Shown piece after piece: positions 1-53,805 of a DNA stretch of 64,000 bases. The notes beneath the pieces are model-generated. The model worked only from the letters and a program-made list of their open reading frames with translations. It was not told the origin of the DNA and searched no databases. Made by a program: the position numbers and the translations under genes. Position 1 is the stretch's first letter; each line of letters opens with the position of its first letter. This DNA comes from a virus (lineage: Duplodnaviria > Caudoviricetes): positions 37,616 through 101,615 of IMG/VR virus record IMGVR_UViG_3300009508_000001. The stretch is one strand, 5' to 3'.

Positions 1-27
1 CCCGCTATATATTTAGTGGGCTTTTTG
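1..27 (+). terminator. Probable intrinsic terminator (left arm at window edge)
   Basis: CCCGCTA-tatatt-TAGTGGG stem followed by CTTTTT. Confidence 0.6.
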
Positions 28-52
28 TTAGACTTTTCAAAAAAATGTAAAT

Positions 53-274
53 ATGAATTTAAAACACTTAAAATTAGATAATTCTAAAGAAATTTCTATT
101 TTAGAAAAAAAACAAAAAGTAATTCCTTTAAATGCTCATGTAGGAAGTGAAGATGATGATGCATTATATGATTATTATAATGAAGCATTTGGTTGTGGAT
201 ATTATCCAATGTCTCAACAATCATTTCCTCATTCTTTAGATAACGAGAATAATTCTAGACATCCTATTGACTAA
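53..274 (+). CDS. Small acidic hypothetical protein
   Basis: 73-aa ORF with A-rich leader, co-oriented with polB; no motif recognised. Confidence 0.55.
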   Translation: MNLKHLKLDNSKEISILEKKQKVIPLNAHVGSEDDDALYDYYNEAFGCGYYPMSQQSFPHSLDNENNSRHPID

Positions 275-295
275 TCTTCTAAAAAAAGAAGATAT

Positions 296-2437
296 GTGAA
301 TGAAATTAAAAAAACAAGAAATTTATATGTTTATGATTTAGAAACATATCCTAATTTCTTTTTAGCTACATTTAAGAATGTAGATAATAAAAACTTTTAT
401 AGATTTGAGATATCAGATAGGAAATCTGATATAACATCTTTATATGATTTTCTAAATCAAAAAGACCTATTATTAATAGGTTTTAATAACGTAAACTTTG
501 ATTATCCAGTATTACATAACACAATATTAAAATATAAGCGTAAATGGACTGCAAAAGCTATTTACAACGCTGTAGAAGAGATAATTCAAGCTGAGTATTC
601 ATCTATTCCTGATAAATGGACTAAAATACCTCAACTAGATTTATATCGTATATGGCATTATGATAATAAAAACAAAAGAACTAGTCTTAAATGGTTAGAA
701 TTTGCTATGAGATTAGAGAATGTTGAAGATTTACCTTATGAACCAGGTACTATACTTACATATTCTCAAATGGATCATATTATTGAATATTGTGATAATG
801 ATATTAATGCAACAGAAAAGTTTTATGAATTAAGTACTAAGCACATAGAAATTAGAAAATTTTATACTAAACTAGAAGGTATAAATCTTATTAATGCTTC
901 AGAGACAAAAATAGCTAAAGAAATATTTGCTAAATATCTATCTAAAGATATGAATGTAAGTGTATGGGATTTAAAACAAATGAGAACTAAACGTTCTTAT
1001 ATCCCTATCAAAGATATTATATTTCCTTATATTAAGTTTAAACATAAACAAAATATTAAAATGTTAGATTATTTTAAATCTATACATTGGAGATCTACTG
1101 AAGAAGGTTTTAGTACTAAAATAAGCCATTCTAATGAGTATTTAAATGTTAAACGTGAATATGGTGAAGGAGGTTTACATTCATTTGGTAAAGCTGGTAT
1201 ATATGAATCTAATGATGAATATATTGTATATGATGTAGATTTTGCATCATACTACCCTCATCTATCATTTGTTAATGGTTTACATCCTGAACATATTCCT
1301 GAAAAAATATTTAGTACAAAATATAAAGGTTTTTATACTGAAAGACAAAACTATCCTAAAAGTAATCCTATTAATTATGTATTAAAAATTATATTGAATA
1401 GTGCTTATGGTCTTAGTAAAGATAAATATGCTTATTTATATGATCCTAAATGGCAACTTGCTATTACTATTAATGGTCAGTTACTTTTAACAATGCTTAC
1501 AGAATGGATTGTAGATGCTACATCTTACTGTAAAATATGTTTTGAAAATACTGATGGTGCTTCTTATATTATTAAAAAGTCTGAAAAACATTTAGTTGAT
1601 AAAGTTCTTAAAGAAATGGAACAATTATCAGGTATAGGTTTAGAAGCTCAAACATATAAGAAACTTATAATGAGAGATGTAAATAATTATATGTCTATTG
1701 ATTTGCAAAATAAAGTTAAATTTAAAGGTGCTTTTGAAATAGATAGAGATTTTCATAAAAATCATTCTAAAAGAATAGTAGCTATTGCAGTAGCTAATTA
1801 TTTTATTAACAATATTAGTCCTGAAATGACAATTAAGAATCATCTTAAAGGTTGGGATTATGATTTTGCTAAGAACTATGGTATCTATGATTTTTGTATA
1901 GGCGCTAAAATGACTGGTAAAAATAAACTTTATAAAAGAAACTGGATAAAAAAAATACCACATTATAATGATGATTTTAAAATAAATTATATTATAAATA
2001 AAGGTTATTCCAGATATTATAATAATACGTATTTACCTCCTAATAGAGAAGGTATGTATGCGATGAGTTTAAATCAAGCTTTCAATAGAGAGTTTAGATT
2101 TAAACCATATATAAAAGATATTAAACTTTATAAAGTTACAAGATATTATGTATCTAATAATGGTTCAGAGTTGATTAAAAAGCTCCCACCGCTGGAAAAG
2201 AATTATCTTACTAATACAGAAAAGATAAAACAATCAACTCCTAATCAAACAGATATATTTGATATTATAGAAGATATTAAAGTAGATCCTAAACATAGAG
2301 AAACTAATATTGAAGCAGGATGGTTATGTACAGTATTTAACAAATACGTTGCAAAAAAAGAAGAATCTTATGATATTAATTATAAATATTATATAAAAGA
2401 AGTTTATAAAATTATTAATAAAATACAATATGAGTAA
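296..2437 (+). CDS. polB: Family B DNA polymerase (crAss-like)
   Basis: Exo I YDLETY, Exo II GFNNVNFD, Exo III YCDND; polymerase motifs DVDFASYYP, KIILNSAYG, NTDG. Confidence 0.93.
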   Translation: MNEIKKTRNLYVYDLETYPNFFLATFKNVDNKNFYRFEISDRKSDITSLYDFLNQKDLLLIGFNNVNFDYPVLHNTILKYKRKWTAKAIYNAVEEIIQAEYSSIPDKWTKIPQLDLYRIWHYDNKNKRTSLKWLEFAMRLENVEDLPYEPGTILTYSQMDHIIEYCDNDINATEKFYELSTKHIEIRKFYTKLEGINLINASETKIAKEIFAKYLSKDMNVSVWDLKQMRTKRSYIPIKDIIFPYIKFKHKQNIKMLDYFKSIHWRSTEEGFSTKISHSNEYLNVKREYGEGGLHSFGKAGIYESNDEYIVYDVDFASYYPHLSFVNGLHPEHIPEKIFSTKYKGFYTERQNYPKSNPINYVLKIILNSAYGLSKDKYAYLYDPKWQLAITINGQLLLTMLTEWIVDATSYCKICFENTDGASYIIKKSEKHLVDKVLKEMEQLSGIGLEAQTYKKLIMRDVNNYMSIDLQNKVKFKGAFEIDRDFHKNHSKRIVAIAVANYFINNISPEMTIKNHLKGWDYDFAKNYGIYDFCIGAKMTGKNKLYKRNWIKKIPHYNDDFKINYIINKGYSRYYNNTYLPPNREGMYAMSLNQAFNREFRFKPYIKDIKLYKVTRYYVSNNGSELIKKLPPLEKNYLTNTEKIKQSTPNQTDIFDIIEDIKVDPKHRETNIEAGWLCTVFNKYVAKKEESYDINYKYYIKEVYKIINKIQYE

Positions 2438-2585
2438 ATCACACTGTCCTATTTGCCTTGGTGCAAAAACTGAAATGAAAGAAGTTAAAGGACGTTTAAA
2501 ATATGTAGAGTGTAATGTATGTGATGAAAATGGAGAAGTAGAAGACTCTATGTTTGAACATTATGATGATGAAGAATTAGTATAA
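2430..2585 (+). CDS. 51-aa zinc-finger protein (DnaJ-type CxxCxG...CxxCxxxG), not in ORF track
   Basis: ATG 2430 overlaps the end of polB; MSKSHCPICLGAK...ECNVCDENGEV...EELV*. Confidence 0.7.
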   Translation: MSKSHCPICLGAKTEMKEVKGRLKYVECNVCDENGEVEDSMFEHYDDEELV

Positions 2586-2595
2586 AAAATTAAAT

Positions 2596-3234
2596 ATGAT
2601 AATTAAGAAGAGTATAATTATAGACATTAAATGTTTAACTATTACTCCACTAAATTTAAATCATATATTAACTCTATTAAAAGTACAATTTTATTTAGAT
2701 AAAGATTTGTTAAACTACGAAGTTAGACAAGAAGATCTAGATTATTTAACATTAAATAAATATATATTATTATTTGATGAGAAAATTAAAGGACAAAAAT
2801 ATTATTTACGTGAAAAAGGAAAAGTTACACTAAATAAAATTGTACAAATAGAGAGTAAAGATTACGATGAAAATAAGTTAGTTCTTAAAGATAAATCTAA
2901 TAAAGATAAGATAGAAGATTATGAAGCATTTGTAAATAAATTTAGAAGTTTATTTAAAGACTTAAGAATAGGTTCTATGGGTAATTTAAAAGCTGTAAAA
3001 GATAAGCTTAAAAGATGGATGAAAGATAATCCTGAGATTACTAAAAAAGAAATACTTAATGCTACAAATAGTTATATCGAATCTTTAAAAGGAGATTATA
3101 GATTTCTTCAAAGAGCAGATTACTTCATATATAAACAAAATCAAAGAAAAGAAGAGAGTTCTAGATTAAGTTTATTTATAGAAGAAGAACAAAAAGAAGT
3201 TGTTAATTCAGATTGGACAACTTCATTAACATAA
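2596..3234 (+). CDS. Hypothetical protein directly upstream of dnaB (possible replication initiator or loader)
   Basis: 212-aa ORF; function inferred from position only. Confidence 0.6.
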   Translation: MIIKKSIIIDIKCLTITPLNLNHILTLLKVQFYLDKDLLNYEVRQEDLDYLTLNKYILLFDEKIKGQKYYLREKGKVTLNKIVQIESKDYDENKLVLKDKSNKDKIEDYEAFVNKFRSLFKDLRIGSMGNLKAVKDKLKRWMKDNPEITKKEILNATNSYIESLKGDYRFLQRADYFIYKQNQRKEESSRLSLFIEEEQKEVVNSDWTTSLT

Positions 3235-3248
3235 AAAAATAAAAATAA

Positions 3249-3422
3249 ATGAGTAACGATAATTTATTTGATAGAGTACGTAGAGACTTATTAAAAAGAA
3301 GAGAGAGATCCCTTTCAGGTAAATTAAATTGTATACCATTCAAATTACCAAGATTCAGTAATGAACTTCCTGGTATTGAACAGGGTACATATAGTATAGT
3401 TACAGCAAACAGTAAAGTTGGT
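3249..3422 (+). CDS. dnaB: DnaB-like replicative helicase, exon 1 (58 codons)
   Basis: ATG 3249: MSNDNLFDRVRR...GKLNCIPFKLPRFSNELPGIEQGTYSIVTANSKVG; ends inside Walker A at GGT; missed by ORF track. Confidence 0.88.
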
Positions 3423-3491
3423 AAATGATTTGCCCCTCTATATAGTAATATATAGTTGAATTCCGAATTATTTAGTTTAAAAATAAAGTTG

Positions 3492-4265
3492 ATGAGAATA
3501 TATAGATACCAATTATCAAAAGATGGTAAAAAAAGCAATAGTGAAAGTTATAATGTAAATAAAAGAACATTAGATTGTGCAGATTATTTTACACAATATA
3601 CTAATAATAGTATTAAATTTAATACATTAGAAGTTGATGATACAGAATTTTTTATTAAAAATCCTAAGTTAAAAGATATAATAGAAAAATTACAAGGTAC
3701 TTTTATAAATGATTATATAGTACAATTTGATGCTAAATATAAAGCAATATTTGCTTTTAGAATAATTAGACTTTCAAATAGTAATTTAAAAAAAAGATTA
3801 GAATTATTATATGACATAATTGAAAGATCTAATTTAGGTATATTTCAAGCTATTCAGTTATCTGAAGTTCTTAGTAAAATTAGAAGATTTAATTGTAATT
3901 ATTCATTAATGAGTAATTATTCAAAATTAATTAATGTAAGTAATAATATATATGATGCTACTAAAAGAAGAACTATTCAAAATATAAAAGATTATAATAG
4001 ACCTTATCAACAAGCAAATTATAAAGCTATATTTTCTTCTGAAAAAGAATATTTGGATAAATATAATAAAGGTTTTATATATTGTAATAGTTCTGGTTCA
4101 AATAGCCTTTATTCATTAAAACTAAAAACTTCAAAATTAAAAAATGAACAAGAAGTTAATGAATATTTTGATAATAAAATTTTAAGAGCTAAAAAACAAT
4201 TAAAAATATCTAAATTTAAGAGATATGGTACAATGTATAATGCTCTAGCAAAATTAGAAGAATAA
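3492..4265 (+). CDS. Intron-nested hypothetical protein (about 257 aa) between P3 and P4 of the dnaB intron
   Basis: Long ORF, likely ATG 3492; no GIY-YIG, HNH or LAGLIDADG motif seen. Confidence 0.75.
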   Translation: MRIYRYQLSKDGKKSNSESYNVNKRTLDCADYFTQYTNNSIKFNTLEVDDTEFFIKNPKLKDIIEKLQGTFINDYIVQFDAKYKAIFAFRIIRLSNSNLKKRLELLYDIIERSNLGIFQAIQLSEVLSKIRRFNCNYSLMSNYSKLINVSNNIYDATKRRTIQNIKDYNRPYQQANYKAIFSSEKEYLDKYNKGFIYCNSSGSNSLYSLKLKTSKLKNEQEVNEYFDNKILRAKKQLKISKFKRYGTMYNALAKLEE

Positions 4266-4348
4266 TAACTAAAATAAACTAAATATGATAATATACATAA
4301 AAAATAATAGTATATTATTAAACGGGGAAACCCATTAAAATAAGAATT

Positions 4349-4558
4349 ATGTGTAAATGTAATAATGGCAATCCCGTGCCGTCACTTGATAGTATTAAAA
4401 ATGAATCTATAAATTATATAAAAAATAAGAATCTTGAAAGAAAAGACGCTTTAATAATTACAGATTTTATTAAACATATATTACAAAACGGTGTAGAGAC
4501 TAACAAGGAATATCCTGAACTAACTGTGTCTGGAAAAAGACGTGAATTAGTAGGATAA
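4349..4558 (+). CDS. Possible 69-aa ORF overlapping the catalytic core of the dnaB intron
   Basis: ATG in L5 after leader TAAGAATT; frame open through Q, P6, R and P8; stop at J8/7. Confidence 0.35.
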   Translation: MCKCNNGNPVPSLDSIKNESINYIKNKNLERKDALIITDFIKHILQNGVETNKEYPELTVSGKRRELVG

Positions 4559-4618
4559 TGAGATAGTCCGAACTATAAAAATAAAATAATTAAAAATTAA
4601 ATTAAAACTAAATTAAAG

Positions 4619-5293
4619 ATGAAACAAGTAGTATGTATTAATCCAAAGAGATATAGACTAACACAAGGTGGTGAATACACAGTTGCTAATAACCCTGTAA
4701 GAGGTTTTTACAACGTAGAAAATGATAATGGTAGTATAAGACGTTATTCAGCAGAACTATTCAGAGATGTACCTAATGAAGATACAGCAGATGTAGCTTT
4801 AAATACATTAAGAATAACTAGAACTGAAGCTGGAGTTATATCAATTAGCATTACAGTTGACAATCAAAATTATTCAACACAAACTTCAGAAACATTAGGT
4901 AGAATTACTTGTAGTTGTGGTATTCATAGTATAAATGCTATAACAACAATGTTAAATTTCGTACAAACTTTACCTGATAGACAAGATCTTAGGGTTAGAG
5001 TATTAGCTAGATTTATTCAATATTGTACTCAAGTAAGAGATATTGGAGCTATGTTAATTAGTACAAATATTAATTGTGCTAACTATGCTTATTTACCTCA
5101 AGCTGTTGCTCATTTAAGACAAAATGGTTTTATTATAAATGAAACTTTTGTAGATAATCCTAATTCAGGTAATACAATAGTAATTTATACAGTAGTTGTA
5201 ACACCTGTAGAAGGTGTAGATTATGATGAGTTAGAAGAAGAAGACGATGTTGAAGATATTGTTGATTTAGCTCAATTGGAAGAAGACCACTAA
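4619..5293 (+). CDS. Intron-nested hypothetical protein (224 aa) in the P9 loop of the dnaB intron
   Basis: A-rich leader; N-terminal VVCIN..LT.G.EY.V..Y.V.ND.G small beta domain; TCSCG; acidic tail; no homing-nuclease motif. Confidence 0.8.
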   Translation: MKQVVCINPKRYRLTQGGEYTVANNPVRGFYNVENDNGSIRRYSAELFRDVPNEDTADVALNTLRITRTEAGVISISITVDNQNYSTQTSETLGRITCSCGIHSINAITTMLNFVQTLPDRQDLRVRVLARFIQYCTQVRDIGAMLISTNINCANYAYLPQAVAHLRQNGFIINETFVDNPNSGNTIVIYTVVVTPVEGVDYDELEEEDDVEDIVDLAQLEEDH

Positions 5294-5368
5294 TTTTTTA
5301 ATTATATTAAATTATAGAGTATAGCAGAAATGACTATACCGCCAGATAAAACTGGTAGTAACAAATAG

Positions 5369-6322
5369 AAATCACAAGCTTGCGATTGGTTGTATATGTA
5401 CAATCCAATTGACTATATTATAAACAATAAAACTAATATTAAACTTAAAATATTTTATTTCTCATTAGAGATGTCTAAAGAACAAAAACTTAGACAATCT
5501 ATATGTAATTATTTATATGTAAAATCTAAAGGTAAATATAAAATAGATCCAAAAAATCTAAGGAGTGTAAAAAATCCTGTAAGTGAAGAAATACTAAATG
5601 AAGTAGAAGGTTCTAAAGAACATTTTGATAAGTTTCAAGAAGTGGTAACATTTATTGATAATATTAAAAATCCTACTGGTATTTACAAATTTATGCGTAA
5701 CTACGCTAGAGCAAATGGTACTATTCATATGACCACTAAGACTTTTAAAGATAATAAGACTGGTGAAAAATATGAAAATGAAATATTTAATTATTATGAA
5801 CCTAATGACCCTGATGAATATGTTATAATGATCATTGATCACGTATCATTATTGCATCAGGAACAAGGTATGACATTACATCAAACTATAACTAAGTTAT
5901 CTTCTAATTATTTAGTAGAACTTAGAAATAGATATAATTTTATACCTGTAGTAATACAACAACAATCAGCAGCTCAAGAATCAGTTGAAAATATGAAAGC
6001 TAATCGTCTTAAACCTAGTTTAGATGGTCTTGCAGATAATAAATTAACTGCTAGAGATGCTGATGTTGTATTAGGTTTATTTAGCCCTTATAGACATAAA
6101 ATAAAAACATATCCTGAAAAGGATGGCTATAACATAATGTATTTTAAAGATAATATTAGGTTTTTAGAAGTATTAGCTTCACGTGAAGGAGGAGGAAATA
6201 GTATATGTCCATTATATTTTGATGGCGCTGTAAACTTTTTTAAAGAACTTCCTTTACCTACTAATATTCCTGAAATGAATAAGATTAAAAATTTTATAAA
6301 AAATGAAAGAGAAAGAACCTAA
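5369..6322 (+). CDS. dnaB: DnaB-like replicative helicase, exon 2 (spliced product about 375 aa)
   Basis: KSQACDWLY after the terminal G; FYFSLEM, Walker B IMIIDHVSLL, VIQQQ, RDADVVLGLFSP, ASREG motifs. Confidence 0.92.
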   Translation, partial: KSQACDWLYMYNPIDYIINNKTNIKLKIFYFSLEMSKEQKLRQSICNYLYVKSKGKYKIDPKNLRSVKNPVSEEILNEVEGSKEHFDKFQEVVTFIDNIKNPTGIYKFMRNYARANGTIHMTTKTFKDNKTGEKYENEIFNYYEPNDPDEYVIMIIDHVSLLHQEQGMTLHQTITKLSSNYLVELRNRYNFIPVVIQQQSAAQESVENMKANRLKPSLDGLADNKLTARDADVVLGLFSPYRHKIKTYPEKDGYNIMYFKDNIRFLEVLASREGGGNSICPLYFDGAVNFFKELPLPTNIPEMNKIKNFIKNERERT

Positions 6323-7064
6323 AAATATAGGCAATTTAAAAGATATTTTAAATAAAAATATCAATAAAGAACTTTTTGAAAGAGAAGATCATGATGAATT
6401 AATTAATGATTATAATGATGAAGGTACAGATGGTGTATATTCACCAATTTTAGAAATTATAAATAATGTTTTTGAAAATTTTGTAAAAAAATCTAGAGAA
6501 CAAAAGTATTTTTTTAAAATGAATAGAAATTCAAATGGTCATAATGTAGCTGGTCATATGTTTTCTATAGATAAACTAGACAAAAGAGATAGATGGACTT
6601 TTGAAGTGTTTATTAACGATTCTGGTAAATTAGAAATAGCACTTATGTCTAATAGTGATTATAACACTGTTAATTTCACATATAGTAGACTTCAAGTAGA
6701 TAATAAATCAGGTTTGTATTCTAGAATGTTAATGACAGCTAGAAAAAGTAATTCTGTTAGAATTGATGATATTAGCTTATATAAAGTAATAGGTGAAAAT
6801 ATTATCGAAATAGAAGTGCTTTCTGAAAAAAAGAAAGAATTAGATCAAATTTTGAAAGATCAACTTGAGGAATTAAATAACATAAAAGAATTAATTGGAA
6901 ATGTAGTTTATATGATTGATTTTATGGAAAAATCTAAAACTACTATTGATACATTATCTAATATTAAAAGTAATATGATCCTTGAATCAATGAATGAATC
7001 TAAAGAAGATTCTACAGTAGATTTGAAAACTACAATTAATGAAATAATTAACTTAGAACTATAA
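6303..7064 (+). CDS. Hypothetical protein
   Basis: 253-aa ORF overlapping dnaB end. Confidence 0.7.
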   Translation: MKEKEPKNIGNLKDILNKNINKELFEREDHDELINDYNDEGTDGVYSPILEIINNVFENFVKKSREQKYFFKMNRNSNGHNVAGHMFSIDKLDKRDRWTFEVFINDSGKLEIALMSNSDYNTVNFTYSRLQVDNKSGLYSRMLMTARKSNSVRIDDISLYKVIGENIIEIEVLSEKKKELDQILKDQLEELNNIKELIGNVVYMIDFMEKSKTTIDTLSNIKSNMILESMNESKEDSTVDLKTTINEIINLEL

Positions 7065-7066
7065 TT

Positions 7067-7462
7067 ATGTTTAAGAATCTCTTAAAAGAATTAAAACCTG
7101 TTATACCAAGATTAGAAAGTAATCTTTTTGACAAAGATACTGTTTTTAATAATGAAGAAATACTTAATAGAGGTATATATAAAGAATCTTTACAGGAAGA
7201 TTTAGATGGTATTGTATTAACAAAAGAATTTATATCTTCAGATAAAACTTTTAGTAAAATTCAAATTACTAAAATGGATAAATCTTCTTTTTTTATTCAA
7301 GTAAATCATGATTTAATTAATTTACCTGAAGCTAGGAAAGAAATTGCATGTATTAAATCTAAAATAAATGATTTAGTAGAAGAAAATAAATTTGAAGAAT
7401 GTACTATTTTAAGAGATAAAATGTATATTTTAAATAAAATAGTAGAAATAAAAACAACATAA
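7067..7462 (+). CDS. Hypothetical protein with C-terminal UvrB/UvrC-like (UVR) motif
   Basis: LVEENKFEECTILRDKM resembles the UVR coiled motif. Confidence 0.55.
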   Translation: MFKNLLKELKPVIPRLESNLFDKDTVFNNEEILNRGIYKESLQEDLDGIVLTKEFISSDKTFSKIQITKMDKSSFFIQVNHDLINLPEARKEIACIKSKINDLVEENKFEECTILRDKMYILNKIVEIKTT

Positions 7463-8290
7463 ATGGCAAAAATAGATTATGAATATAAAAAATTATTACA
7501 ACACATCTTAGATGAAGGATATAGATATGAAGATCCTAATCGTAAAGGTGTATATAGGCGTCAAATATCAGATTATAAGATTGTACACGATTTTAGAGAT
7601 GGTTTTCCTGCGCTAACTACTAAAAAGTTAGCGTGGAAATCTGTTGTAGGAGAGTTATTGTGGATTTTAAGAGGAGATACTAATATTAAATATCTTGTAG
7701 ATAATGATATTAATATTTGGAATAAAGATACTTATAATTATTATTTAAGTAAAGGTGAAGGTAAATTTGGAATTAAACCTTATGATGAGTTTATTAAAAA
7801 AATAGGTGTAGAAAGAAATATTTCAAATAATAAAAACTATAATTTTGGAGATATAGGTAGAGGTTATGGTGCTCAATTGAGAAATTGGAGAGGTTCTAGT
7901 GAAGTAGATAATGGTCCAGAGTTTAATACTATAGACCAATTTGCAGAACTTATAAACATTCTTAAAACTAATCCAATGGCTACTAAGAAGACAGTAACAT
8001 TCTGGAATCCAGCAGAGAAAGATCAATGTGCTTTAACACCTTGTCATTGGAGTTTTGAAGTATTGGTTGAACCTATTGAATTTGATTATGTTGCTGATTA
8101 TACAGGACTTAAAGAAAATGATTGGTTTGAAAAAGCTTGTAAAAATTTAGAACATAAAGATGTTATAAAATGTGAAAATAAATATTATCAAATATTTTTT
8201 GGACCAGAACATGATTCTTGTGAAGAGTTTATACCTAAATATCAATTCACTTTAAAATGGCATCAACATAGTGTGGATACATTCCTCGGT
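7463..8290 (+). CDS. thyA: Thymidylate synthase, exon 1
   Basis: GFPALTTKKLAWKSVVGELLW, YGAQLRNW, catalytic LTPCH, SVDTFLG. Confidence 0.93.
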
Positions 8291-8410
8291 AGGTAGTAAG
8301 CTGAGGTTAAAACTAGTTAAACGGGGAAACTCCTAATATTAAGTTAAGGACAATCCCGTGCTAAATTTTTTTATATAATAAATATTATTATAAAATAATG
8401 AGTAAATAAC

Positions 8411-8441
8411 TTGCAATATAGGTAACTATTTTGTATATTTG
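8411..8441 (+). promoter_or_regulatory. Bacteroidota sigma70-type promoter for the intron endonuclease
   Basis: TTG-N20-TATATTTG matches the -33/-7 TAnnTTTG consensus. Confidence 0.7.
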
Positions 8442-8456
8442 TAGAAATACAAATTT

Positions 8457-9140
8457 ATGAAAGGTTATATTTACAAAATTACAAATTTAAATACCAATAA
8501 ATATTATATTGGTAGTACAGTTGATTTTAAAACAAGAAAAAAACAACATTTATGGCATTTAAGAGCTAATAAACATGTAAATAAACATTTACAGAGTTCT
8601 TATAATAAACATGGTGAAGAATTTTTTGAATTTAAAATAATAGCTGAAGTTAATAATATTAAAGAAACTGAACAAGAGTTTCTAGATAATTTAGATTTTA
8701 CAAAATCTTATAATATATCACCAAATTCTGTTGGTGGAGATATAATAAAAACATTTCCATTAAAAAGACAAAAAGAAGTTTATAAAAAAATATCAGAAAG
8801 TAGAAAAGGTAGTTTACCTGGAAATGCTATTTCTGTTAATATAAATGGTGAAATATTTAATTCTTTTAATAAAGCCTCAATTGCTTTAAATTTACCAGTT
8901 ACAACTATTAGATATAGATGTAAATCATTAAATAGTAAATTTAGAAATTGGAACATTATAGGAGAAGAAAAAGATGAAAATAAACTGTATAAAGAAGGTA
9001 TTAATCAAGGTCATATAATTATATGTGAACAAAAAGAATTTCCTTCTTATGCAGAAGCAGCAAGATATTATAATATGTCTATAACTGCTATTCAAAATAG
9101 AGTAAAATCCAAAAATTATCCACAATTTTATAAAAAATAA
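8457..9140 (+). CDS. GIY-YIG homing endonuclease in the P6 loop of the thyA intron
   Basis: GYIYKITN...YYIGST...RKKQH...H.N..LQ.SYNKHG; two C-terminal NUMOD/HTH-like repeats. Confidence 0.9.
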   Translation: MKGYIYKITNLNTNKYYIGSTVDFKTRKKQHLWHLRANKHVNKHLQSSYNKHGEEFFEFKIIAEVNNIKETEQEFLDNLDFTKSYNISPNSVGGDIIKTFPLKRQKEVYKKISESRKGSLPGNAISVNINGEIFNSFNKASIALNLPVTTIRYRCKSLNSKFRNWNIIGEEKDENKLYKEGINQGHIIICEQKEFPSYAEAARYYNMSITAIQNRVKSKNYPQFYKK

Positions 9141-9270
9141 ATGCCGAACGACTATCCCTTATGGGAGTACAATCAAGTGATTGGAAACGCTAGTCCTCAG
9201 AAATGAGTGAAGATATAGTCTAATCTGCATAGTAATATGCAGCAGTTTAATTAATAAAAAATAAAAAATT

Positions 9271-9507
9271 ATGCAAAATTTATATTATGTAGTAGAAAAA
9301 CATCTACAGCAAATTGATTTAGAAGAAAATATAGAAGAAACTACAGGTTGGAAAACAATAACAGTTTATGATATAGATACTCAAGCTATGAATTTAATAG
9401 AAGTGTGTCAAATAGAAGCTAAAACTGAAACTAATTCTGAAGAGGAAATTTATATTTATTTAGAAAACAACAATGATGAAAATGAGTATAATTTAATAGA
9501 ATTATAA
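9271..9507 (+). CDS. Intron-nested 78-aa highly acidic protein in the P9.1 loop of the thyA intron
   Basis: A-rich leader; 19 D/E versus 3 K and 0 R; flanked by GTTTAATTA/TAATTAAAC stem. Confidence 0.75.
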   Translation: MQNLYYVVEKHLQQIDLEENIEETTGWKTITVYDIDTQAMNLIEVCQIEAKTETNSEEEIYIYLENNNDENEYNLIEL

Positions 9508-9548
9508 TTAAACGCATAAAGTAGTTACGCACTTTATGGAATAAAATG

Positions 9549-9890
9549 TTACCCTTTAACATTGCTTCTTATGGACTTTTAGCACAGATTATAGGTAAGA
9601 TGACTAATATGATACCAAAAGGTATTATAGGTGATTTAAGCAACGTACATATTTATGAACCTCATTTAGATGCTGTTAAAGAGCAGTTAAGTAGGGATGT
9701 TGATAAGTATGGTGATAGTGAATTAATGATTAGTACATTAACTCAAACTAATTTAAATAATGATAATTTTAAAAATAATGATATTATGAGGCATATTGAT
9801 AATGGTAATATTGATATTAAAGATTTTACATTATTTGATTATAAATCATACCCAAGAATACCAGCAGAAATGTTGGCTTATAGTAATTAA
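9549..9890 (+). CDS. thyA: Thymidylate synthase, exon 2 (spliced product about 389 aa)
   Basis: LPFNIASY, NVHIYEPH, C-terminal YPRIPAEMLA. Confidence 0.93.
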   Translation, partial: LPFNIASYGLLAQIIGKMTNMIPKGIIGDLSNVHIYEPHLDAVKEQLSRDVDKYGDSELMISTLTQTNLNNDNFKNNDIMRHIDNGNIDIKDFTLFDYKSYPRIPAEMLAYSN

Positions 9891-9903
9891 AAACTAATTA
9901 AAA

Positions 9904-10506
9904 ATGAGAAATAATTATTCTTGTTATTATGGTATAAAAATAGAAGATAAAATATATGATAATATAAGTTCTTCAAGTAAAGTTAAATTTGAACATTTTC
10001 ATTTAGGAACTGCTTGTTGGTCAGGTTTACAAAGATTACCTTTAAAAACTAAATATATTTATATTTATAAATTTAATAATACTAAAGATTTACCACGATT
10101 AGTTCAATTAATAAATAATATAACGTCTTGTAAAATTGTTAAAATAAATAACAAGAAATATATTAGATATAAATTAATTGATTGGGATAAAGATAGAGTA
10201 AAAAATAGAGCTTGTTTTTTTTATTCTAAAAATCTTTTATTATTAAATATTATTAGATTAAATTGGTATAGAGCTAGTCAGTTTAATATTGATCAATTTA
10301 AAAAAGATATATTTAATAATTGTAGAGGAACTGATTCTTTATATTTTTTACTTAAATGTATAAAAGATAATGTAATAGATAAATCTCAAGGAAGAGGTAT
10401 TAATTTTGGAGATCATAGTCCTATATATAAAAATATAATCCTTAAAAAGAAAAAAGATTTATTTAAATATAAAGGTAATAGTATGCAAATATTTTTAACA
10501 AAATAA
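9904..10506 (+). CDS. Hypothetical protein
   Basis: 200-aa basic ORF with A-rich leader. Confidence 0.7.
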   Translation: MRNNYSCYYGIKIEDKIYDNISSSSKVKFEHFHLGTACWSGLQRLPLKTKYIYIYKFNNTKDLPRLVQLINNITSCKIVKINNKKYIRYKLIDWDKDRVKNRACFFYSKNLLLLNIIRLNWYRASQFNIDQFKKDIFNNCRGTDSLYFLLKCIKDNVIDKSQGRGINFGDHSPIYKNIILKKKKDLFKYKGNSMQIFLTK

Positions 10507-10573
10507 CAGCTCATTTTTTATTTATATAGTTGATGAAAATAATCTAAACAATTATTAACTATAAAATAAATTA

Positions 10574-11032
10574 ATGGGACAATTAGTATTTATTGTTGGG
10601 AAATCAGGAATGGGTAAATCAACTAGTGCAAGAAATTTAGATCCAGATAAAACTGTGATTATAAATTCTGATCAAAAAGATTTACCATTTCCTAAATTTC
10701 GTAGCAAATACAGTGAAGAAAAAGGAAATTACTTACAAACAAGTAATGTAGATGAAGTAATAACAAAATTAAAAGAAGTACAAAGTAATGATAATGTAAA
10801 TACAGTTATAATTGATACTTGGAGTAGGATGATGACTGATGGAGTAATGGCGCCTAGCTTTGTAAAAAATAAAGGTTTTGAAAAATGGGGTAATTTCTCA
10901 TTTAGTCATTATAAACTTATTAATATTATCAACGAAAAGTTGAGAGATGATTTAGTAGTATATTTATTTTGTCATCCTGAAATAGTATATGATGAATCAG
11001 GCTTTCCTAGAATGGAAATAGCTGTGCAGGGT
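10574..11032 (+). CDS. Sak4-like/AAA_24 P-loop ATPase, exon 1
   Basis: Walker A GKSGMGKS, Walker B VIIDT, LFCH. Confidence 0.85.
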
Positions 11033-11269
11033 TGATTAATGTTTGCCCTGATTAAACCTATTTAATTGCTGGAACGTCTTTAAGCTTATATAACTACAAC
11101 GTAATCATAAATGATAAGCGTGAATGTTTAAAAATATATAAGATTAGATAATCAGCAGCGAAGCTCTTTTAAAATAGAGAACGTTCACAGACTATCCCGT
11201 GAGGGAGTAAGTATAAATTATTAGTATAAAATTTATATTGAAAAAGTAGGTATTCACGAATTTTTGTTG

Positions 11270-11277
11270 TATCTTTG
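11270..11277 (+). promoter_or_regulatory. -7 element of a probable leaderless promoter for the intron endonuclease
   Basis: TATCTTTG lies 4 nt before ATG 11282; -33 element not clear. Confidence 0.5.
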
Positions 11278-11281
11278 TATT

Positions 11282-12055
11282 ATGAAGAAACAACTATTAA
11301 AATTTGTAAATATAGAAGAACTTAGTTCTACTGGTATTTACAACATAACTTTTAAAGGAACTAATAAAATATATATTGGTTCTACTATAGCAGGTTTAAA
11401 GTCTAATAAAATTTCTGATAAAGGATTTTATTGTAGATGGTCTAAACATTTAAGATTATTAAAACAAAATATTCATCCTAATAATTATTTGCAAAATGCA
11501 TTTAATAAATATGGTAATGATAATATTGAATTTAATATAATTAAAATATGTATAGATAAAAATAAAATAATAGAATTAGAACAATATTATTTAGATAAAT
11601 TAAAACCTTATAATAGAAAAAATGGATATAATATTCAAAAAAAAGCAGATAGAGTTGAACTATATAATTTAAATTTAAATAAAAAGAAAATAGTTCAGTA
11701 TGATATTAATGGTAACTTTGAAAAAATACATAATAGTTCTTTAGAAGCCTCTAAAGAATTAAATGTAACTTCAAGTTCTATATATCATTGTTTGCAATCT
11801 GATAATAGAATATGTAAAAATAAACAATTTGTATATTTTACTAAAAATTATCCTAAAAAAATAAAACCTTATATTAAAAAAGTTAAAACTAGAAAAAAAG
11901 TATATCAATATACTAAAGATAAAAAATACATTACTAATTATAATTCTGTTAAAAAAGCAGCAGAATCTGTAAATGGAAGTAGTGGTACATTATCTTATTA
12001 TATACGTAAAACTGGTTTTTTCAAAGGTTATTATTGGAGTTATGAACGTGAATAA
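11282..12055 (+). CDS. GIY-YIG homing endonuclease in the P8 loop, with NUMOD1-like repeats
   Basis: TGIYNI...IYIGST...RWSKH...LQNAFNKYG, GYNI; repeats IVQYD..G...S..EAS and VYQY......YNSVKKAA. Confidence 0.9.
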   Translation: MKKQLLKFVNIEELSSTGIYNITFKGTNKIYIGSTIAGLKSNKISDKGFYCRWSKHLRLLKQNIHPNNYLQNAFNKYGNDNIEFNIIKICIDKNKIIELEQYYLDKLKPYNRKNGYNIQKKADRVELYNLNLNKKKIVQYDINGNFEKIHNSSLEASKELNVTSSSIYHCLQSDNRICKNKQFVYFTKNYPKKIKPYIKKVKTRKKVYQYTKDKKYITNYNSVKKAAESVNGSSGTLSYYIRKTGFFKGYYWSYERE

Positions 12056-12097
12056 AGATATAGTCGGTATATATATGAAAATGTATATGTAAAAATG

Positions 12098-12310
12098 AAA
12101 CAAATTAAGAAATTCTTCCCAGAAAGTTTTTCAAGTATAGTACTTTATGCAGAAGCTGTTAAAAGTCCAGGAAATCCTGTTCAATACGTATTTAGAACAG
12201 TTACAGGAGGAGATGACACATGTAAGACACCAATGGGTATGTTTGAAGAAGAAAACATAGACAATGATCTTATAATAGTCAATAACGCTATAACAGAATA
12301 TTATTCTTAA
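12098..12310 (+). CDS. Sak4-like ATPase, exon 2 (spliced product about 223 aa)
   Basis: PESFSSIVLY...TCKTPMGMF...IDNDL is the usual C-terminus of this family. Confidence 0.85.
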   Translation, partial: KQIKKFFPESFSSIVLYAEAVKSPGNPVQYVFRTVTGGDDTCKTPMGMFEEENIDNDLIIVNNAITEYYS

Positions 12311-17349: not shown

Positions 17350-19188
17350 ATGAAAACAATCTTAATATTAATATTAATACATTATGTATTATTACTCGTA
17401 AGAAAGAATAAAAATTCATCAGTTTTATCTTGTGGTTTATTTGGATGGGTAGGAAGTAGCTCAGATAAATTTTCTAAAGATAAATTTGATAAATTAGGTA
17501 TGTATAATGTAGAGAGAGGTAAACACTCTTGTGGAGTTGCTGTAAATGGTGAGTTATACAAAGGTATTGGAGTGATATCTGAATATCAAGATTATATAAT
17601 CAAAAATACAACTCCTCATCCAAAAGAATCTACAGTAGTTATAGGTCATACTAGACATGCTACAGTAGGTAAACATACTATTTCTGCTGCTCACCCTTTT
17701 AAATTTGATTATGGTGAAGAAGGTTATTTTATAGGTGCTCATAATGGAACACTTAAAAATTATCATCAAATAGCTAGAGAATATGGAATTGATGCTACTG
17801 GTAAAATTGATAGTCAAATATTATTAGAAATTATATCCAAAGATGATGCTAATATTAAAGTTTTAGAACAGTATTATGGTGCTGCTGCATTATTAATGCA
17901 TAGTTCTGAAAACCCTGATACTATGTATTTATTTAGAGGTAAATCTAAACAAGATACTTTTACTAATACTTATGAAAGGGACGAAAGACCTTTATATTAT
18001 TGGCAAGAGAATGATGGTAGCATGTATATTTCATCTTTAAAAGATTCATTATTAGCAATAATTAATGTTGAAGAGGATAAAAAAAATATATTTGAAGTTG
18101 CTCCTAATAGAATCTATGAGATAAAAGCTGGTAAAATAGTTAAAAAATGTGTTATAGATAGAAGTAATGTTATTGACTATTATGAAACTAAAAAGAAAGA
18201 GTTTGCTAATACTACTAAACCAAAATCTACTACAAATAGTAGAATAGGTTATAATAGAACATTAGATTCAAATTCTAATGATGATATGAATACTAATGAT
18301 CACGCTATAAATAATTTATTTTATGAAAAGAAATATATTAAAAATACGTATCAAGAAATCAACTTTAACAAACTAAGATGGTTTGATTCTGAAAATAAAA
18401 GAGTTAGTGGTATTCACATATTTATAGATCAAATTGGTTATGTTAAAATTGGAGATGATATTAATAAACTTAAAAGTAAATTATCAGATTTTAGTTTTTT
18501 AGATTCTTCTTTAACCCAGCCTGAAAATATCAATTTTGGAAATATCGAAGATGCAGATTTATTTTATTTTCATAATGGAGTTCTTTTAGAAACAGAAGAA
18601 GACTATATGTTTTGTCTTAATCCTTCATTAGCTAGAAAAAAAGAACCTACATTTGAAGATTATTCTGACATGTCTGTTCATCCTATTATTGATTTAGATA
18701 GGATAAAAAAAGAGGATGTTATAACAAGAGCTAAACAAGCTATTACTAAAGATAGTAAAATGTTTAGTGGTCAAATAATAATGGCTGGAAGTTATGTTGT
18801 TTATACTGTCCATAATGGTATATTAACCAAAGCATCCTTAAAAGATGAAATGATAGAATATGACAGTGCTAATTTTAATACTCTTGATATTTTTGAAAAC
18901 GCCTCTATAACTTCTTCTAAACTTGAAGATGAAGAAGAGGATGATGTAGAAGATTCTACTTTTGAAGAAGAAATTAATTCTATGATGGAATTAGGTAGTA
19001 TAGATGAAATAGATACTGTATTTGAAGTAATGTCTAATTTTGACGCAGCTATAGAAAGCGTACAAGAATTAAAAGAGTATAAGTCAAATAGTAAATTAAC
19101 TAATATGATTATAGAGTTTACAGAAACTTTAGAAAATGGCTTAAAACCAATTTCAGAAGCAGTAAATTCTATTAATCAAAATGTGTAA
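17350..19188 (+). CDS. Class II (Ntn) glutamine amidotransferase with 27-aa N-terminal leader and long acidic C-terminal region
   Basis: CGLFG, RGKHSCG, IGHTRHATVG, AHPF, HNGTL, IDSQ, ERPL. Confidence 0.88.
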   Translation: MKTILILILIHYVLLLVRKNKNSSVLSCGLFGWVGSSSDKFSKDKFDKLGMYNVERGKHSCGVAVNGELYKGIGVISEYQDYIIKNTTPHPKESTVVIGHTRHATVGKHTISAAHPFKFDYGEEGYFIGAHNGTLKNYHQIAREYGIDATGKIDSQILLEIISKDDANIKVLEQYYGAAALLMHSSENPDTMYLFRGKSKQDTFTNTYERDERPLYYWQENDGSMYISSLKDSLLAIINVEEDKKNIFEVAPNRIYEIKAGKIVKKCVIDRSNVIDYYETKKKEFANTTKPKSTTNSRIGYNRTLDSNSNDDMNTNDHAINNLFYEKKYIKNTYQEINFNKLRWFDSENKRVSGIHIFIDQIGYVKIGDDINKLKSKLSDFSFLDSSLTQPENINFGNIEDADLFYFHNGVLLETEEDYMFCLNPSLARKKEPTFEDYSDMSVHPIIDLDRIKKEDVITRAKQAITKDSKMFSGQIIMAGSYVVYTVHNGILTKASLKDEMIEYDSANFNTLDIFENASITSSKLEDEEEDDVEDSTFEEEINSMMELGSIDEIDTVFEVMSNFDAAIESVQELKEYKSNSKLTNMIIEFTETLENGLKPISEAVNSINQNV

Positions 19189-19196
19189 TAATAACA

Positions 19197-20741
19197 ATGG
19201 ATAAAAACAGAATTATTAAAACTTTTACAGGTAAAAAAGCAAAAAGATCAGACTGTAAAAGAATAAGAGGTCAATATTATTTAGTTGGTGATGTTTCAAT
19301 AAAAGATAGTGGTGAATGCTATAAAATTGAAGATCAATATCATAGATTTAATAATGGTCTTATAGAATATGATCATAATGTAAAAAAATATGTTTTAATT
19401 CATAAAAATCATTTAAAATCAGGTATTGTAGATATTAATAATGAAGAACCTATTATAGGTTTTTATACACCTAATTTAGTTGAAAATGTTGTTCTACGTG
19501 ATGATCCTAATAAAGTATCTAAAGATTTACATTGTATATCTGAAGAAATAGCTTTAAAATTAGGATATAAAGAACGTTTAGGAGATGGTATTTTTTATAG
19601 TACTAAACATTCATCTATTACAGCAAAGTTTCTTAATGAAATTAGTAATAAAATTATTAATAAATCAAGATTACCTTATGATAGTAGATTTTCTCAAGGG
19701 ATAACTAAAAATATATTTAATTCTCATTTTAAACCAGATTACTCTAATAATCAGTTAAATGTTTTAGGTGATTGGTTAGAAGATAATGGAATTACTTTTG
19801 GTGTAGAATTTGAAACTTCTACAGGTTATGTTGCTGAAAGATTATGTTATAAATATGGTGTTTTAGCTTTAAGAGATGGTAGTATTGACGGTTTAGAATA
19901 TGTTACTATACCTTTATCTGGTAAAAAAGGTTTATATGCTTTAAAAGGTATTTGTGAAGAACTTAAAAAGCGTACTAAATTTGATATAAAATGTGCATTG
20001 CATATTCACGTAGGAGGTCTTAAAAGAGAAGAAAATTCTATATTAGCTTCTTATAATTTAGGATATCTTTTACAAGATGAATTATTTGAAATGCAACCTT
20101 TTTACAAAAGAGGTAATACAGGTTATCATAATAATCCTAGAGAAAAAGATTATTCTAAAAAAATTGCTAAATCTGTTCATGATAATATTAATGAACCTAA
20201 AACTTTAAAAGAAAAGTTTGCTAGATTATTTTATATGGCTTCTGACAGTAGAAGTTATGATAATTATAATAATGATCTTAAAAAAGTTAAAAAGCATCCT
20301 AGTGATCCTAAAGGTACATCTAAATGGAATATTCATTCTAGATATACTTGGTTAAATTTAGTACCTATAATTTTTGGTAATAAGAAAACTTTAGAATTTA
20401 GACAACATTCACCAACGTTTGAATTTGAAAAAGTAGTTAATTTTTTAATATTCTGTTCTACATTTGTTAAATTTGTAAATATTAATTCTGATAAACTAGC
20501 TGATAATACTTCAGATTTGTATAAAGAATTAAAATCTTCAAGTAATAAATTAGAATATGTTATTAAGAAATCATTACCTCTTCTTAAATTTAAGGATATT
20601 ATTGAAAGATATGTATCTTATAATTCTTTAAGAACTAAAATAATGGAAACTCTTAAAGCTAAAAAAGATTATTTAGGTAAAAATGAAGCTAAATTTGATT
20701 CTATGTATGGAGCTTTAACTAAAGATAATTTTTGGAATTAA
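19197..20741 (+). CDS. Putative amidoligase (Amidoligase_2-like COOH-NH2 ligase)
   Basis: TFGVEFET, RDGSI, EYVT, CALHIHVG, RYTWLN, TLEFRQH. Confidence 0.85.
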   Translation: MDKNRIIKTFTGKKAKRSDCKRIRGQYYLVGDVSIKDSGECYKIEDQYHRFNNGLIEYDHNVKKYVLIHKNHLKSGIVDINNEEPIIGFYTPNLVENVVLRDDPNKVSKDLHCISEEIALKLGYKERLGDGIFYSTKHSSITAKFLNEISNKIINKSRLPYDSRFSQGITKNIFNSHFKPDYSNNQLNVLGDWLEDNGITFGVEFETSTGYVAERLCYKYGVLALRDGSIDGLEYVTIPLSGKKGLYALKGICEELKKRTKFDIKCALHIHVGGLKREENSILASYNLGYLLQDELFEMQPFYKRGNTGYHNNPREKDYSKKIAKSVHDNINEPKTLKEKFARLFYMASDSRSYDNYNNDLKKVKKHPSDPKGTSKWNIHSRYTWLNLVPIIFGNKKTLEFRQHSPTFEFEKVVNFLIFCSTFVKFVNINSDKLADNTSDLYKELKSSSNKLEYVIKKSLPLLKFKDIIERYVSYNSLRTKIMETLKAKKDYLGKNEAKFDSMYGALTKDNFWN

Positions 20742-52257: not shown

Positions 52258-53805
52258 TTATATTTTACTACCTTTTACAAAGCCACTTATTCTTTTAATT
52301 TTATCTTTTTGTTTTTTAATCTTTTTTAATTTTTCTAATTTTACTTTTTCAGAATAAGTAGACCAATCTTTTTCATATATTCTATCATAGAAAGGAATCT
52401 TGTTATCAGTATTAAATCCATTCCAGTCATAAGTGTCTACAAATGATATATATCTACCTTTTTCATCTTCACCTGCATCTGTTCTATATCTCCCTAAGTT
52501 AAATTCTCCTTTAAAGCTACCATGACCTTTATTGTACTGTCCTTTATATCCTGCTTTATTTTTAGGAAAAGCTTGATCTGCGTTGTGCTTTCTATCTTCA
52601 CCATTACTTTTTAGACCTTTAAATATATCATTAAAACTTCCATCATGATTGTAGTCTTTTTTAACTCTATCCGAAGTTAAATCATTATAAACATCTTCTC
52701 TCATGCCAGGTCTAGTATAATATTTAGGTTCTTTGTCTCCAGGATTTACATATGATTTTATAGTAGGTTTATAAGGACTTTCTTTTAAGTCTTCATCTTT
52801 CATACCAAAAAAATATTGACCTACATTTCCAAACATATTACCCCATGTATTTGCAGTTTTTCCAGTTTCCATTAGTCTTTCTTTACAAGGAGGTTGACCT
52901 TCTCCACCACAGTTAGGATTTAAATTACCACCTAAAGCAAATTCATTGTTTTTAGTTGGTTTTAATTTAGTATCTTTTTGATTTATAAATACTCTATCTG
53001 AGAATATAAATTTACCTTCTGGAAAGTCATAACTAGATTCTCCTTGTTCTACAGTATTAGGTTTACCATTACCACCCATACCTTGTGGAATACCTCCTAG
53101 AGGATTTTGTTCATGTCTACCACCTGTATTAAATGAATTAAGTTTACTATCCTCTTGGTTAATAAACTTTCTATTCATATATTTAGATAAATCTAAATTA
53201 TCTTGTTTAGGTGCAGCCATCATTCTTTCATCAGGTACTTTCATACCTGAAACATTTATTTTAACAGGTTCTTGTGGTGTATTAAACTTTTTTTTAAATT
53301 TATTAAGTGAATTATTAAAAGATTTAATATGCCCAGCTCTTTTCTCTTTACTTCCAGCCCACCAATGATCTGCCCATAAATCTTGAATAGATAAATCACC
53401 AGTAACATAATCTTTTAAATCAACACCACCTTTCATTCTTAGATCACCTAAAAATAATACATCTTGTTGAGCACTAGTTAAAGTACTAGCATCACCAGTA
53501 CCATTCTTTATAATTTTACTTATATAGTCTGGTACAGCATGACCTTTACTTCTTAAATATTTTTTAGTTCTATTAGCAGCACTAAGTATTCTATTACTAC
53601 CACCTTGACCTTCAAATTGATATTTACCTCTACCAGGACCTCCACCATACTGATGTATAGTAGGATCTAATGTTCCAGCAGATTCATGGTAAGCTATACC
53701 ATTCATAAGTCTTTTATAATCAGCTTCGGTACCACCTTTATCTTCAATGATATCTTTTAATATCTTATCAAAGTAAGGATCTTTGTTGTTTAAATTATCA
53801 TTCAT
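52258..53805 (-). CDS. Virion protein with N-terminal lysozyme-like domain
   Basis: GIAYHES...GPGRGKYQFE; GGRHEQNPLGGI...VEQGE...IFSDR motif; likely ATG 53805. Confidence 0.6.
   Translation of the reverse strand: MNDNLNNKDPYFDKILKDIIEDKGGTEADYKRLMNGIAYHESAGTLDPTIHQYGGGPGRGKYQFEGQGGSNRILSAANRTKKYLRSKGHAVPDYISKIIKNGTGDASTLTSAQQDVLFLGDLRMKGGVDLKDYVTGDLSIQDLWADHWWAGSKEKRAGHIKSFNNSLNKFKKKFNTPQEPVKINVSGMKVPDERMMAAPKQDNLDLSKYMNRKFINQEDSKLNSFNTGGRHEQNPLGGIPQGMGGNGKPNTVEQGESSYDFPEGKFIFSDRVFINQKDTKLKPTKNNEFALGGNLNPNCGGEGQPPCKERLMETGKTANTWGNMFGNVGQYFFGMKDEDLKESPYKPTIKSYVNPGDKEPKYYTRPGMREDVYNDLTSDRVKKDYNHDGSFNDIFKGLKSNGEDRKHNADQAFPKNKAGYKGQYNKGHGSFKGEFNLGRYRTDAGEDEKGRYISFVDTYDWNGFNTDNKIPFYDRIYEKDWSTYSEKVKLEKLKKIKKQKDKIKRISGFVKGSKI

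Follow-up and report, generated by a model that had tools for sequence, protein, structure and literature searches.

A conserved acidic gene in the P9.1 loop of the td-type thyA intron of a marine crAss-like phage

The thyA intron and its second gene

The window analysed here is a stretch of 64,000 nucleotides from the genome of a marine crAss-like phage; it comprises bases 37616-101615 of the 101,615-bp virus record IMGVR_UViG_3300009508_000001, which carries direct terminal repeats. The thymidylate synthase gene of this phage, thyA, contains a td-type group I intron of 1258 nt (8291..9548), and the subject of this work is an open reading frame (ORF) of 78 codons, ORF78 (9271..9507), that lies within the loop of the P9.1 hairpin of this intron. 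Positions are those of the window throughout and all features of the thyA locus are on the plus strand. A preliminary description of this DNA had proposed that the intron contains, in addition to its nuclease gene, a second and non-nuclease gene at the P9.1 position, and our data confirm this.

Exon 1 of thyA (7463..8290) ends with ...TFLG, has T 8290 as its last base and matches the Pfam family Thymidylat_synt with an E-value (E) of 3.8e-42 at profile positions 2-154; exon 2 (9549..9890) starts with LPFNIASY... and matches the same family with E 3.9e-16 at profile positions 176-265. Removal of the intron restores the thyA frame exactly: the resulting ...TFLG + LPFNIASY... is identical to the ThyA of L008, a related 100-kb contig with an unsplit thyA gene that reads ...HSVDTFLGLPFNIASY... 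across the junction and fixes the exon boundary. In contigs from two public runs, 8284 is linked to 9549 across six bases; these contigs represent the intron-less form. The joined form is also present in a DNA run and is therefore an intron-less allele and not a product of splicing, but it still fixes the junction. Both the L008 thyA gene and the joined contigs place the 3' splice site at 9548, and ORF78 is thus within the excised RNA, as the preliminary description had assumed.

Several elements of a group I intron can be recognised. T 8290 provides the U in the U-G pairing of the 5' splice site, and G 9548 is the 3' terminal base of the intron. By inspection, the exon sequence CCTCGGT (8284-8290) pairs with the internal guide GCTGAGG (8301-8307) to form P1; by eye, P7 is formed by GACTAT (9150-9155) and ATAGTC (9215-9220), with P8 at 9196-9207. 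Both halves of the core match td introns of T4-like phages by blastn, with matches in 646 phage records of which the best-ranked are annotated td introns, and the likeness to known td introns ends at 9243, which is the end of P9. The homing endonuclease gene of the intron (8457..9140) encodes a GIY-YIG protein of 227 aa, with matches to Pfam GIY-YIG (E 2.8e-07), I-TevI_DNA-bd (E 2.5e-08) and PHROG 314 'homing endonuclease' (E 7.2e-28), in agreement with the earlier prediction of a GIY-YIG nuclease gene inside the thyA intron. It occupies the position of I-TevI-like genes in annotated td introns.

The 3' end of the intron consists of the P9 hairpin (CTGCATA / TATGCAG, 9225..9242), the P9.1 stem with its 5' arm GTTTAATTA (9245..9253) and its 3' arm TAATTAAAC (9505..9513), and the P9.2 hairpin (CATAAAGT / ACTTTATG, 9515..9538). 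All three are paired in the minimum-free-energy fold of 9220-9548. The 9-nt arms of P9.1 occur only once in this arrangement in the window and in 0 of 100 shuffles, so that the hairpin described initially, a P9.1 loop with a 78-aa ORF closed by these two arms, is substantiated by both the fold and the uniqueness of the arms; the 5' arm is identical in L008 and in a further contig, L009. ORF78 fills the loop of this first hairpin after P9, 3' of the nuclease gene, and its stop codon coincides with the three bases that open the 3' arm. As ORF78 is located in the excised part of the intron, it would be copied along with it.

Exon 1 of thyA is itself variable: in contigs of relatives, about 160 nt (8075-8237) are swapped for 76 or 134 other bases, or skipped. 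This region looks like a hypervariable in-frame insert of ThyA.

The ORF78 family and its predicted protein

ORF78 is the only copy of this gene in the window's genome. A chance origin of its length is not supported by shuffling: an ATG-to-stop ORF of at least 78 codons was reached in 0 of 20,000 shuffles of the 254-nt loop, and one of at least 50 codons in 81. From a collection of 5.8 billion proteins, 26 homologues of 73-80 aa were retrieved, with 46-93% identity as listed, and a library of 1.84 billion entries yielded 60 cluster representatives at E <= 1e-3, 16 of them at E <= 1e-10; tblastn with ORF78 as query found nothing at E <= 1 in 50,697 phage records. The residues L4, Y6, K10, G26, K28, Y33, I60 and L78 are invariant in the family alignment (A1). 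Conservation at the protein level, which had been named beforehand as a test of the proposed gene, is evident from the ratio of non-synonymous to synonymous substitutions (dN/dS, Nei-Gojobori): it is 0.076-0.173 in 10 of 10 pairs of five copies, and 0.11-0.17 in the three pairs of intron-borne copies. All three known intron-borne copies are full length. By these sequence criteria, ORF78 is a genuine protein-coding gene under purifying selection, and it belongs to a family of small phage proteins without earlier annotation.

Some members of the family are longer. P0027 (138 aa) has the N-terminus of a DUF4381 protein joined to family residues 7-78 at 81% identity and is probably a chimera of assembly or gene calling, and the N-terminal extensions of P0038, P0067 and P0072 have no Pfam match. 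A decayed or second homing nuclease was considered as the origin of ORF78 and rejected: there is no match to GIY-YIG, HNH, LAGLIDADG or His-Cys families in Pfam, PHROG and NCBIfam at E <= 1, and full-length homologues have about 75 aa.

The gene is preceded by an A-rich leader (9254..9270) that has neither a Shine-Dalgarno sequence nor a promoter-like motif. The leader had been noted in the preliminary description, and with 70% A in the 20 nt before the ATG it equals that of thyA, the mean for 42 plus-strand ORFs of the window being 53%. By inspection, genes of this genome generally lack Shine-Dalgarno sequences and have A-rich leaders. A promoter-like motif, TAnnTTTG, which we take to be the consensus of the Bacteroidota -7 box, is located at 8434..8441, 23 nt before the start of the nuclease gene, in a stretch that is conserved in four intron copies (alignment A3). 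The same motif is found 12 nt upstream of the nuclease gene in the AAA_24 intron described below, and none is present within 60 nt upstream of the passenger gene. As a promoter-like motif is absent before ORF78, the gene is probably translated from one of three RNAs: the thyA pre-mRNA, the excised intron, or a transcript started at the promoter-like site of the nuclease gene. The last of these would include no more than the ribozyme's 3' half, and its translation could leave splicing undisturbed; a ribosome that reaches the stop codon of ORF78 would unpair the P9.1 stem. Among the RNA libraries, runs X19, X20 and X22 contain relatives only, in the form of contigs. These leave parts of 9307-9507 uncovered, which bears neither way on the gene, and one contig from X20 has 255 unaligned bases at the position of ORF78. 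The depths in X22, 58 for the intron contig and 6 for the contig of joined exons, carry no weight in this account.

The absence of an own promoter-like motif and Shine-Dalgarno sequence would also be expected of a non-functional remnant, or of an open frame that arose by chance in an enlarged P9.1 loop and is never translated. This explanation is hardly credible: leaders without Shine-Dalgarno sequence but rich in A are the rule in this genome, no shuffled loop reached the length of the ORF, selection on the protein extends to the intron-borne copies, none of which is truncated, and the fold of the protein is predicted with confidence.

With an alignment of 68 rows, AlphaFold2 predicts a structure (pLDDT 93.9, pTM 0.79) with strands at residues 2-16, 21-36 and 41-51, a helix at 56-66 and a last strand at 73-77, hence the order beta-beta-beta-alpha-beta. 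When two copies are modelled, a homodimer is predicted with a score of 0.73, compared with 0.01 for the best of three controls. The 0.73 mark is reached by 20 of 30 proteins solved as one-chain pairs and by one of 23 solved as single chains, counts that hold roughly, since an own alignment was used. Contacts agree to 100% between the dimer runs, with a pLDDT of at least 89 for the partner. The predicted interface is the open face of the sheet and includes the conserved positions Y5, V7, K10, L12, E22-T24, G26, Y33, I35 and L78, with the conserved K10 contacting E22 of the partner chain. As most conserved residues are in the interface, the conservation may largely be explained by fold and dimer.

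The protein is very acidic. The composition given initially, 19 D/E against 3 K, is correct, and in addition there is no R; the pI is 4.05 and the net charge is -16 per chain. With -0.205 charges per residue, it is the most acidic of the 53 plus-strand ORFs of the window (mean +0.019, standard deviation 0.069). A net charge of -4 or below is found in 66 of the 68 family members, and 13 alignment columns have at least 60% D/E, 11 of them outside the list of predicted interface positions. The model thus suggests an exposed surface on which the sequence varies and the acidity is kept.

Free-standing and intron-borne copies

The context of the family was surveyed at 18 other loci, three viral and 15 metagenomic; for L001, context is visible downstream only. 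At 16 of the 18 loci the ORF78 homologue is free-standing, with no intron flanks, and located in gene arrays or intergenic settings. In L002, L003 and L010-L019 it is closely surrounded by small genes, and in L002 and L003 it is near genes of replication and nucleotide metabolism, as judged by eye from the translations. In L001 and L005-L007 the homologue is directly followed by a conserved non-coding stretch. The closest free-standing copies each have a structured RNA of about 110 nt behind them (L005:636-768, L007:981-1108 and L001:214-345) for which 27 pairs are predicted, six of them changed on both sides among the three sequences; close members of the family are therefore repeatedly found beside structured RNA. 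No Rfam family matches this RNA at E <= 1, and the window's genome lacks it. There is also no synteny between the window and the phages of the closest free-standing copies (83-91% amino-acid identity): a 125-aa neighbour of the closest copy has no match in the window's genome, and the downstream RNA element has only a match of 20 nt with E 0.04.

The remaining two loci, L008 and L009, carry the homologue inside an intron, with the same hairpin, the same leader and the same overlap between stop codon and stem as in the window. L009, a metagenome contig of 2653 nt, has a thyA gene interrupted twice by group I introns, first near residue 72 and again at the td site; there is a GIY-YIG gene in each, and the passenger gene is borne only by the intron near residue 72. 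In L008, where thyA is unsplit, the intron is in an AAA_24 ATPase gene (exon 1, profile positions 2-86; exon 2, 97-193) and contains an ORF with EndoVII and HNH PHROG matches, followed by the ORF78 homologue.

Related introns were collected by scanning viral contigs for an 18-base motif over the 3' strand of P7, which gave at least 116 stretches and 118 rows in the loci taken. Among the matches listed, the usual 3' end consists of P9, a 4-bp P9.1 with a 6-nt loop, P9.2 and the splice site; with a rough regular expression, about 104 of the 115 readable rows among them are compact and 11 other, and three rows are too short. L063, L093 and L128, from the same matches listed, have a tiny, insert-free P9.1 with the same outer stem as the window. 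In searches with 68 queries at E <= 1e-3, no member of the ORF78 family is encoded in any of 117 loci, of which 116 were found with the 18-mer among the matches listed and one, L137, is part of the window's own genome.

Two sister introns are particularly informative. L067 has an intron at the td site of thyA with the same P9 and with 33 of 35 bases identical from P9.2 to the 3' splice site, and its P9.1 is a hairpin of 103 nt that has stops in all three frames and is non-coding. A 1034-nt contig from run X22 aligns with 8309-9247, a stretch that takes in the nuclease gene, at about 92% identity (75 bases differ), and past this stretch its P9.1 is compact. Because these two sister introns are without the gene, P9.1 can be regarded as a variable payload site and ORF78 as optional.

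The preliminary description had counted ORF78 as an independent second case of intron cargo in this genome. Within the window, the sole other td-like intron found is in an AAA_24 ATPase gene (10574-12310; exon 1 from 10574 to about 11033, exon 2 to 12310). It has a GIY-YIG gene at about 11282-12055, the 3' strand of P7 at 12056-12065 and a compact 3' end, and bears the GIY-YIG gene only, without a second ORF. In its 5' part it is similar, by eye, to the ATPase intron of L008.

A comparison of the three gene-bearing introns indicates where the likeness begins. Window and L008 are 57% identical over the 70 nt before the 3' strand of P7; past this strand, identity rises to 95% between core and leader, is again 95% for the ORF and amounts to 93% between the stop codon and the 3' splice site. 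Between window and L009, base pairs are changed on both sides in P9 (two pairs) and in P9.2 (three pairs), and the P9.1 stem is invariant. The 3' module, consisting of the 3' strand of P7, P9, P9.1 with the gene, and P9.2, is therefore common to three introns with different sites and with two classes of nuclease. In a maximum likelihood tree of 32 proteins and 78 columns (midpoint rooted, 16 of 29 inner branches unresolved), the three intron-borne copies form one clade with support of 91/86, within a shallow group that also holds free-standing copies.

These data can be accommodated by a model in which a free-standing accessory gene was captured once into the P9.1 loop and the 3' module was then exchanged between introns by recombination in the conserved core; the direction of capture and the mechanism of recombination are both inferred. 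Nuclease-driven homing would then co-convert the passenger along with the intron, as the gene is placed between the nuclease gene and the 3' exon. We regard ORF78 as a captured, optional intron-borne passenger that would be copied with the intron, because the family is mostly free-standing elsewhere, the module is shared, sister introns exist without the gene and the intron-borne copies are a single nested clade. The earlier suggestion that ORF78 is cargo that co-homes with its intron is well supported by this comparative evidence.

The phage itself has several marks of crAss-like phages. On the minus strand, seven large co-directed ORFs of 518 to 2269 aa are located at 31971-57916; these include ORFs of 1,299-2,269 aa and one that contains the domain of Crassvirus cargo protein 1 (52258-53814). 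The primase shares 46% identity with its counterpart in Cellulophaga phage phi14:2, which is the closest of the cultured relatives seen, and has further matches in crAss-like and Flavobacterium phages. From these marks and the primase relatives, a Bacteroidota host is a reasonable inference. A class-II glutamine amidotransferase-like gene (612 aa) and an Amidoligase_2 gene (514 aa) adjoin each other at 17350-20741, and by eye an Amidoligase_2-like gene is also close to the free-standing ORF78 homologue of L003.

Function of ORF78 and comparison with known systems

Taken as a whole, it is likely that ORF78 is a selected acidic phage gene that was captured into the P9.1 loop of the thyA intron, is co-converted as a passenger and may act in trans as a decoy or binder. 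Its product most likely functions, early in infection, as a dimeric polyanionic binder or decoy by which a protein of the host or phage would be modulated, and we infer that it is neither a nuclease nor a splicing factor. Acidity and predicted dimer are compatible with a polyanionic decoy or binder, and a DNA mimic would be one kind of these.

The preliminary description had favoured this latter kind, a DNA mimic comparable to Ocr, Ugi and some anti-CRISPR proteins (Acrs) that blocks a DNA-binding enzyme of host defence or repair, with the intron spreading a counter-defence gene. The charge of the protein and of nearly all family members, the position of most acidic columns outside the predicted interface, the predicted homodimer (several known DNA mimics are dimers) and the presence of free-standing copies among small uncharacterised genes would all fit. 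However, acidity is common among small phage proteins, there is no sequence match to a solved mimic or inhibitor in the PDB profile search at E <= 10, and structural matches to T7 Gp1.2 (Z 3.7) and to a pair of AcrIF entries (Z 3.5-3.8) do not rise above the background, leaving a DNA mimic in this strict sense an unlikely candidate. In particular, the superficial likeness of the N-terminus to Ugi found no support: no PDB chain is matched at E <= 1 in a chain set that presumably includes Ugi complexes, and Ugi appears in none of three structure searches. It is not among the Foldseek or VIA-align matches listed, although absence from such a list leaves the fold possible.

The product of ORF78 might instead serve the intron, as splicing helper, RNA chaperone, or regulator or partner of the nuclease. 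A protein with a net charge of -16 is an unlikely RNA binder, the partner nuclease varies (GIY-YIG in two introns, EndoVII/HNH type in one), sister introns manage without the gene and 16 of 18 loci are free-standing with no intron nearby; a role in the intron is very improbable in the light of these facts, even if the gene is intact and under purifying selection in three different introns and even if the three closest free-standing copies (L005, L007 and L001) are each followed by the structured RNA with its six covarying pairs.

Several points weigh against the favoured account of a captured passenger that acts in trans as a decoy or binder. No Rfam model matches the region 7000-11000 at E <= 1 or the whole window at the gathering score, probably because of the two large inserts of 684 nt and 260 nt, and the intron call accordingly rests on td homology and exon junctions, with a core recognised by blastn similarity and by eye. 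Expression and splicing are predictions from sequence, as the RNA runs are available as contigs and the joined exon form also occurs in a DNA run. The proposed spread between introns is based on a small sample of three intron-borne copies, their clade has moderate support (91/86) from 78 columns, and the direction from free-standing to intron-borne is deduced from nesting and numbers in a midpoint-rooted tree. As to function, no conserved neighbour of the free-standing copies was found, and acidity is weak evidence for a decoy because many small phage proteins are acidic. Matches of ORF78 in Pfam, PHROGs and NCBIfam are sub-threshold only (Alpha_adaptin_C 0.032, phrog_38676 0.17, NifX 0.011), and the family profile matches none of the PDB chains at E <= 1, with three unrelated chains at E 1.7-3.5. 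Foldseek searches of PDB and BFVD had no match at E <= 1e-3, with halves of RNase-H-like folds (TM 0.4-0.5) ranked first, the ESM Atlas had no usable match, and the best match of a wide VIA-align search is a de novo binder with Z 5.0, which is under the usual background. We read the VIA-align matches as reflecting the common beta-beta-beta-alpha-beta arrangement and not homology.

More tentatively, the homing intron may act as a gene drive for a captured acidic dimeric decoy with a role in takeover or counter-defence: the nuclease would spread the gene among co-infecting phages and core recombination would spread it among introns, from a ribozyme loop tolerant of inserts, and the gene would favour retention of the intron. 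Phage group I introns are usually treated as a ribozyme plus a homing nuclease. A conserved and selected passenger would show that phage introns can also carry accessory genes between phages, and would link selfish introns with the pool of phage accessory genes. It is testable whether passengers gain from co-conversion and whether a useful passenger protects its intron from loss, and the question of which ribozyme loops accept cargo has a bearing on engineered td-intron tools. ORF78 also introduces an unannotated family of about 60 clusters, and its confident fold and predicted dimer make it a defined target for functional work in Flavobacteriia phages.

Small acidic inhibitors and DNA mimics are known as a class from phages (Ocr, Ugi, p56, Arn and some Acrs). 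ORF78 shares with them its small size, its negative charge and its predicted dimer, but there is no detected sequence likeness and no clear structural one.

A close known counterpart of the intron itself is the td intron with I-TevI, for example that of Salmonella phage Melville (NC_042044): it has the same host gene, the same insertion site (...LG / LPFN...) and a similar core with recognisable P7 strands and P8, the GIY-YIG gene is at the same internal position, and P9, P9.1 and P9.2 form the 3' end. The known td introns compared have a short P9.1 and one ORF, while in the intron of the window P9.1 houses an additional gene, of 78 codons, that does not encode a nuclease. Other phage introns also have a gene near the 3' end: in the nrdD/sunY intron of T4, the I-TevII nuclease gene is located after P9, and in L085 and L022, GIY-YIG-like ORFs are found by eye downstream of P9, which indicates that 3' peripheral hairpins tolerate a whole gene. 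However, the ORFs after P9 in L085 and L022 are the introns' own nucleases, whereas the P9.1 gene of the window matches no nuclease family and the nuclease gene is elsewhere in the intron.

In the literature searched, in part as partial texts and with subscription journals and supplementary files outside the scope, there is no phage group I intron with a non-nuclease passenger. According to the part of the source that was available, crAss-like phages are intron-rich, with introns there found through their nucleases (PMC7886860). Further parallels come from other systems, each described here as far as the accessible part of the respective article goes. IStrons combine a bacterial group I intron of the IA2 class, which has extended P9.0, P9.1 and P9.2, with an IS element at the 3' end (PMC4227781). 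They resemble the intron of the window in the similar structural class and in the presence of foreign, non-nuclease ORFs at one constant position, but the load of an IStron is a transposon that confers mobility, while the load in the window consists of one small gene that has no part in mobility, for which the nuclease is responsible. Organellar group I introns encode rps3, N-acetyltransferases and aminotransferases, with products that are dispensable for mobility (PMC8393795). The likeness to the fungal rps3-type introns, again within the accessible part of that article, is that a gene unrelated to mobility lies inside a group I intron, a gene that in the window's intron is within the excised part and under purifying selection; the difference is that the fungal mitochondrial introns contain housekeeping or enzyme genes, whereas the phage intron combines a nuclease gene with the gene of a small accessory protein that is free-standing elsewhere and appears to have moved between introns.

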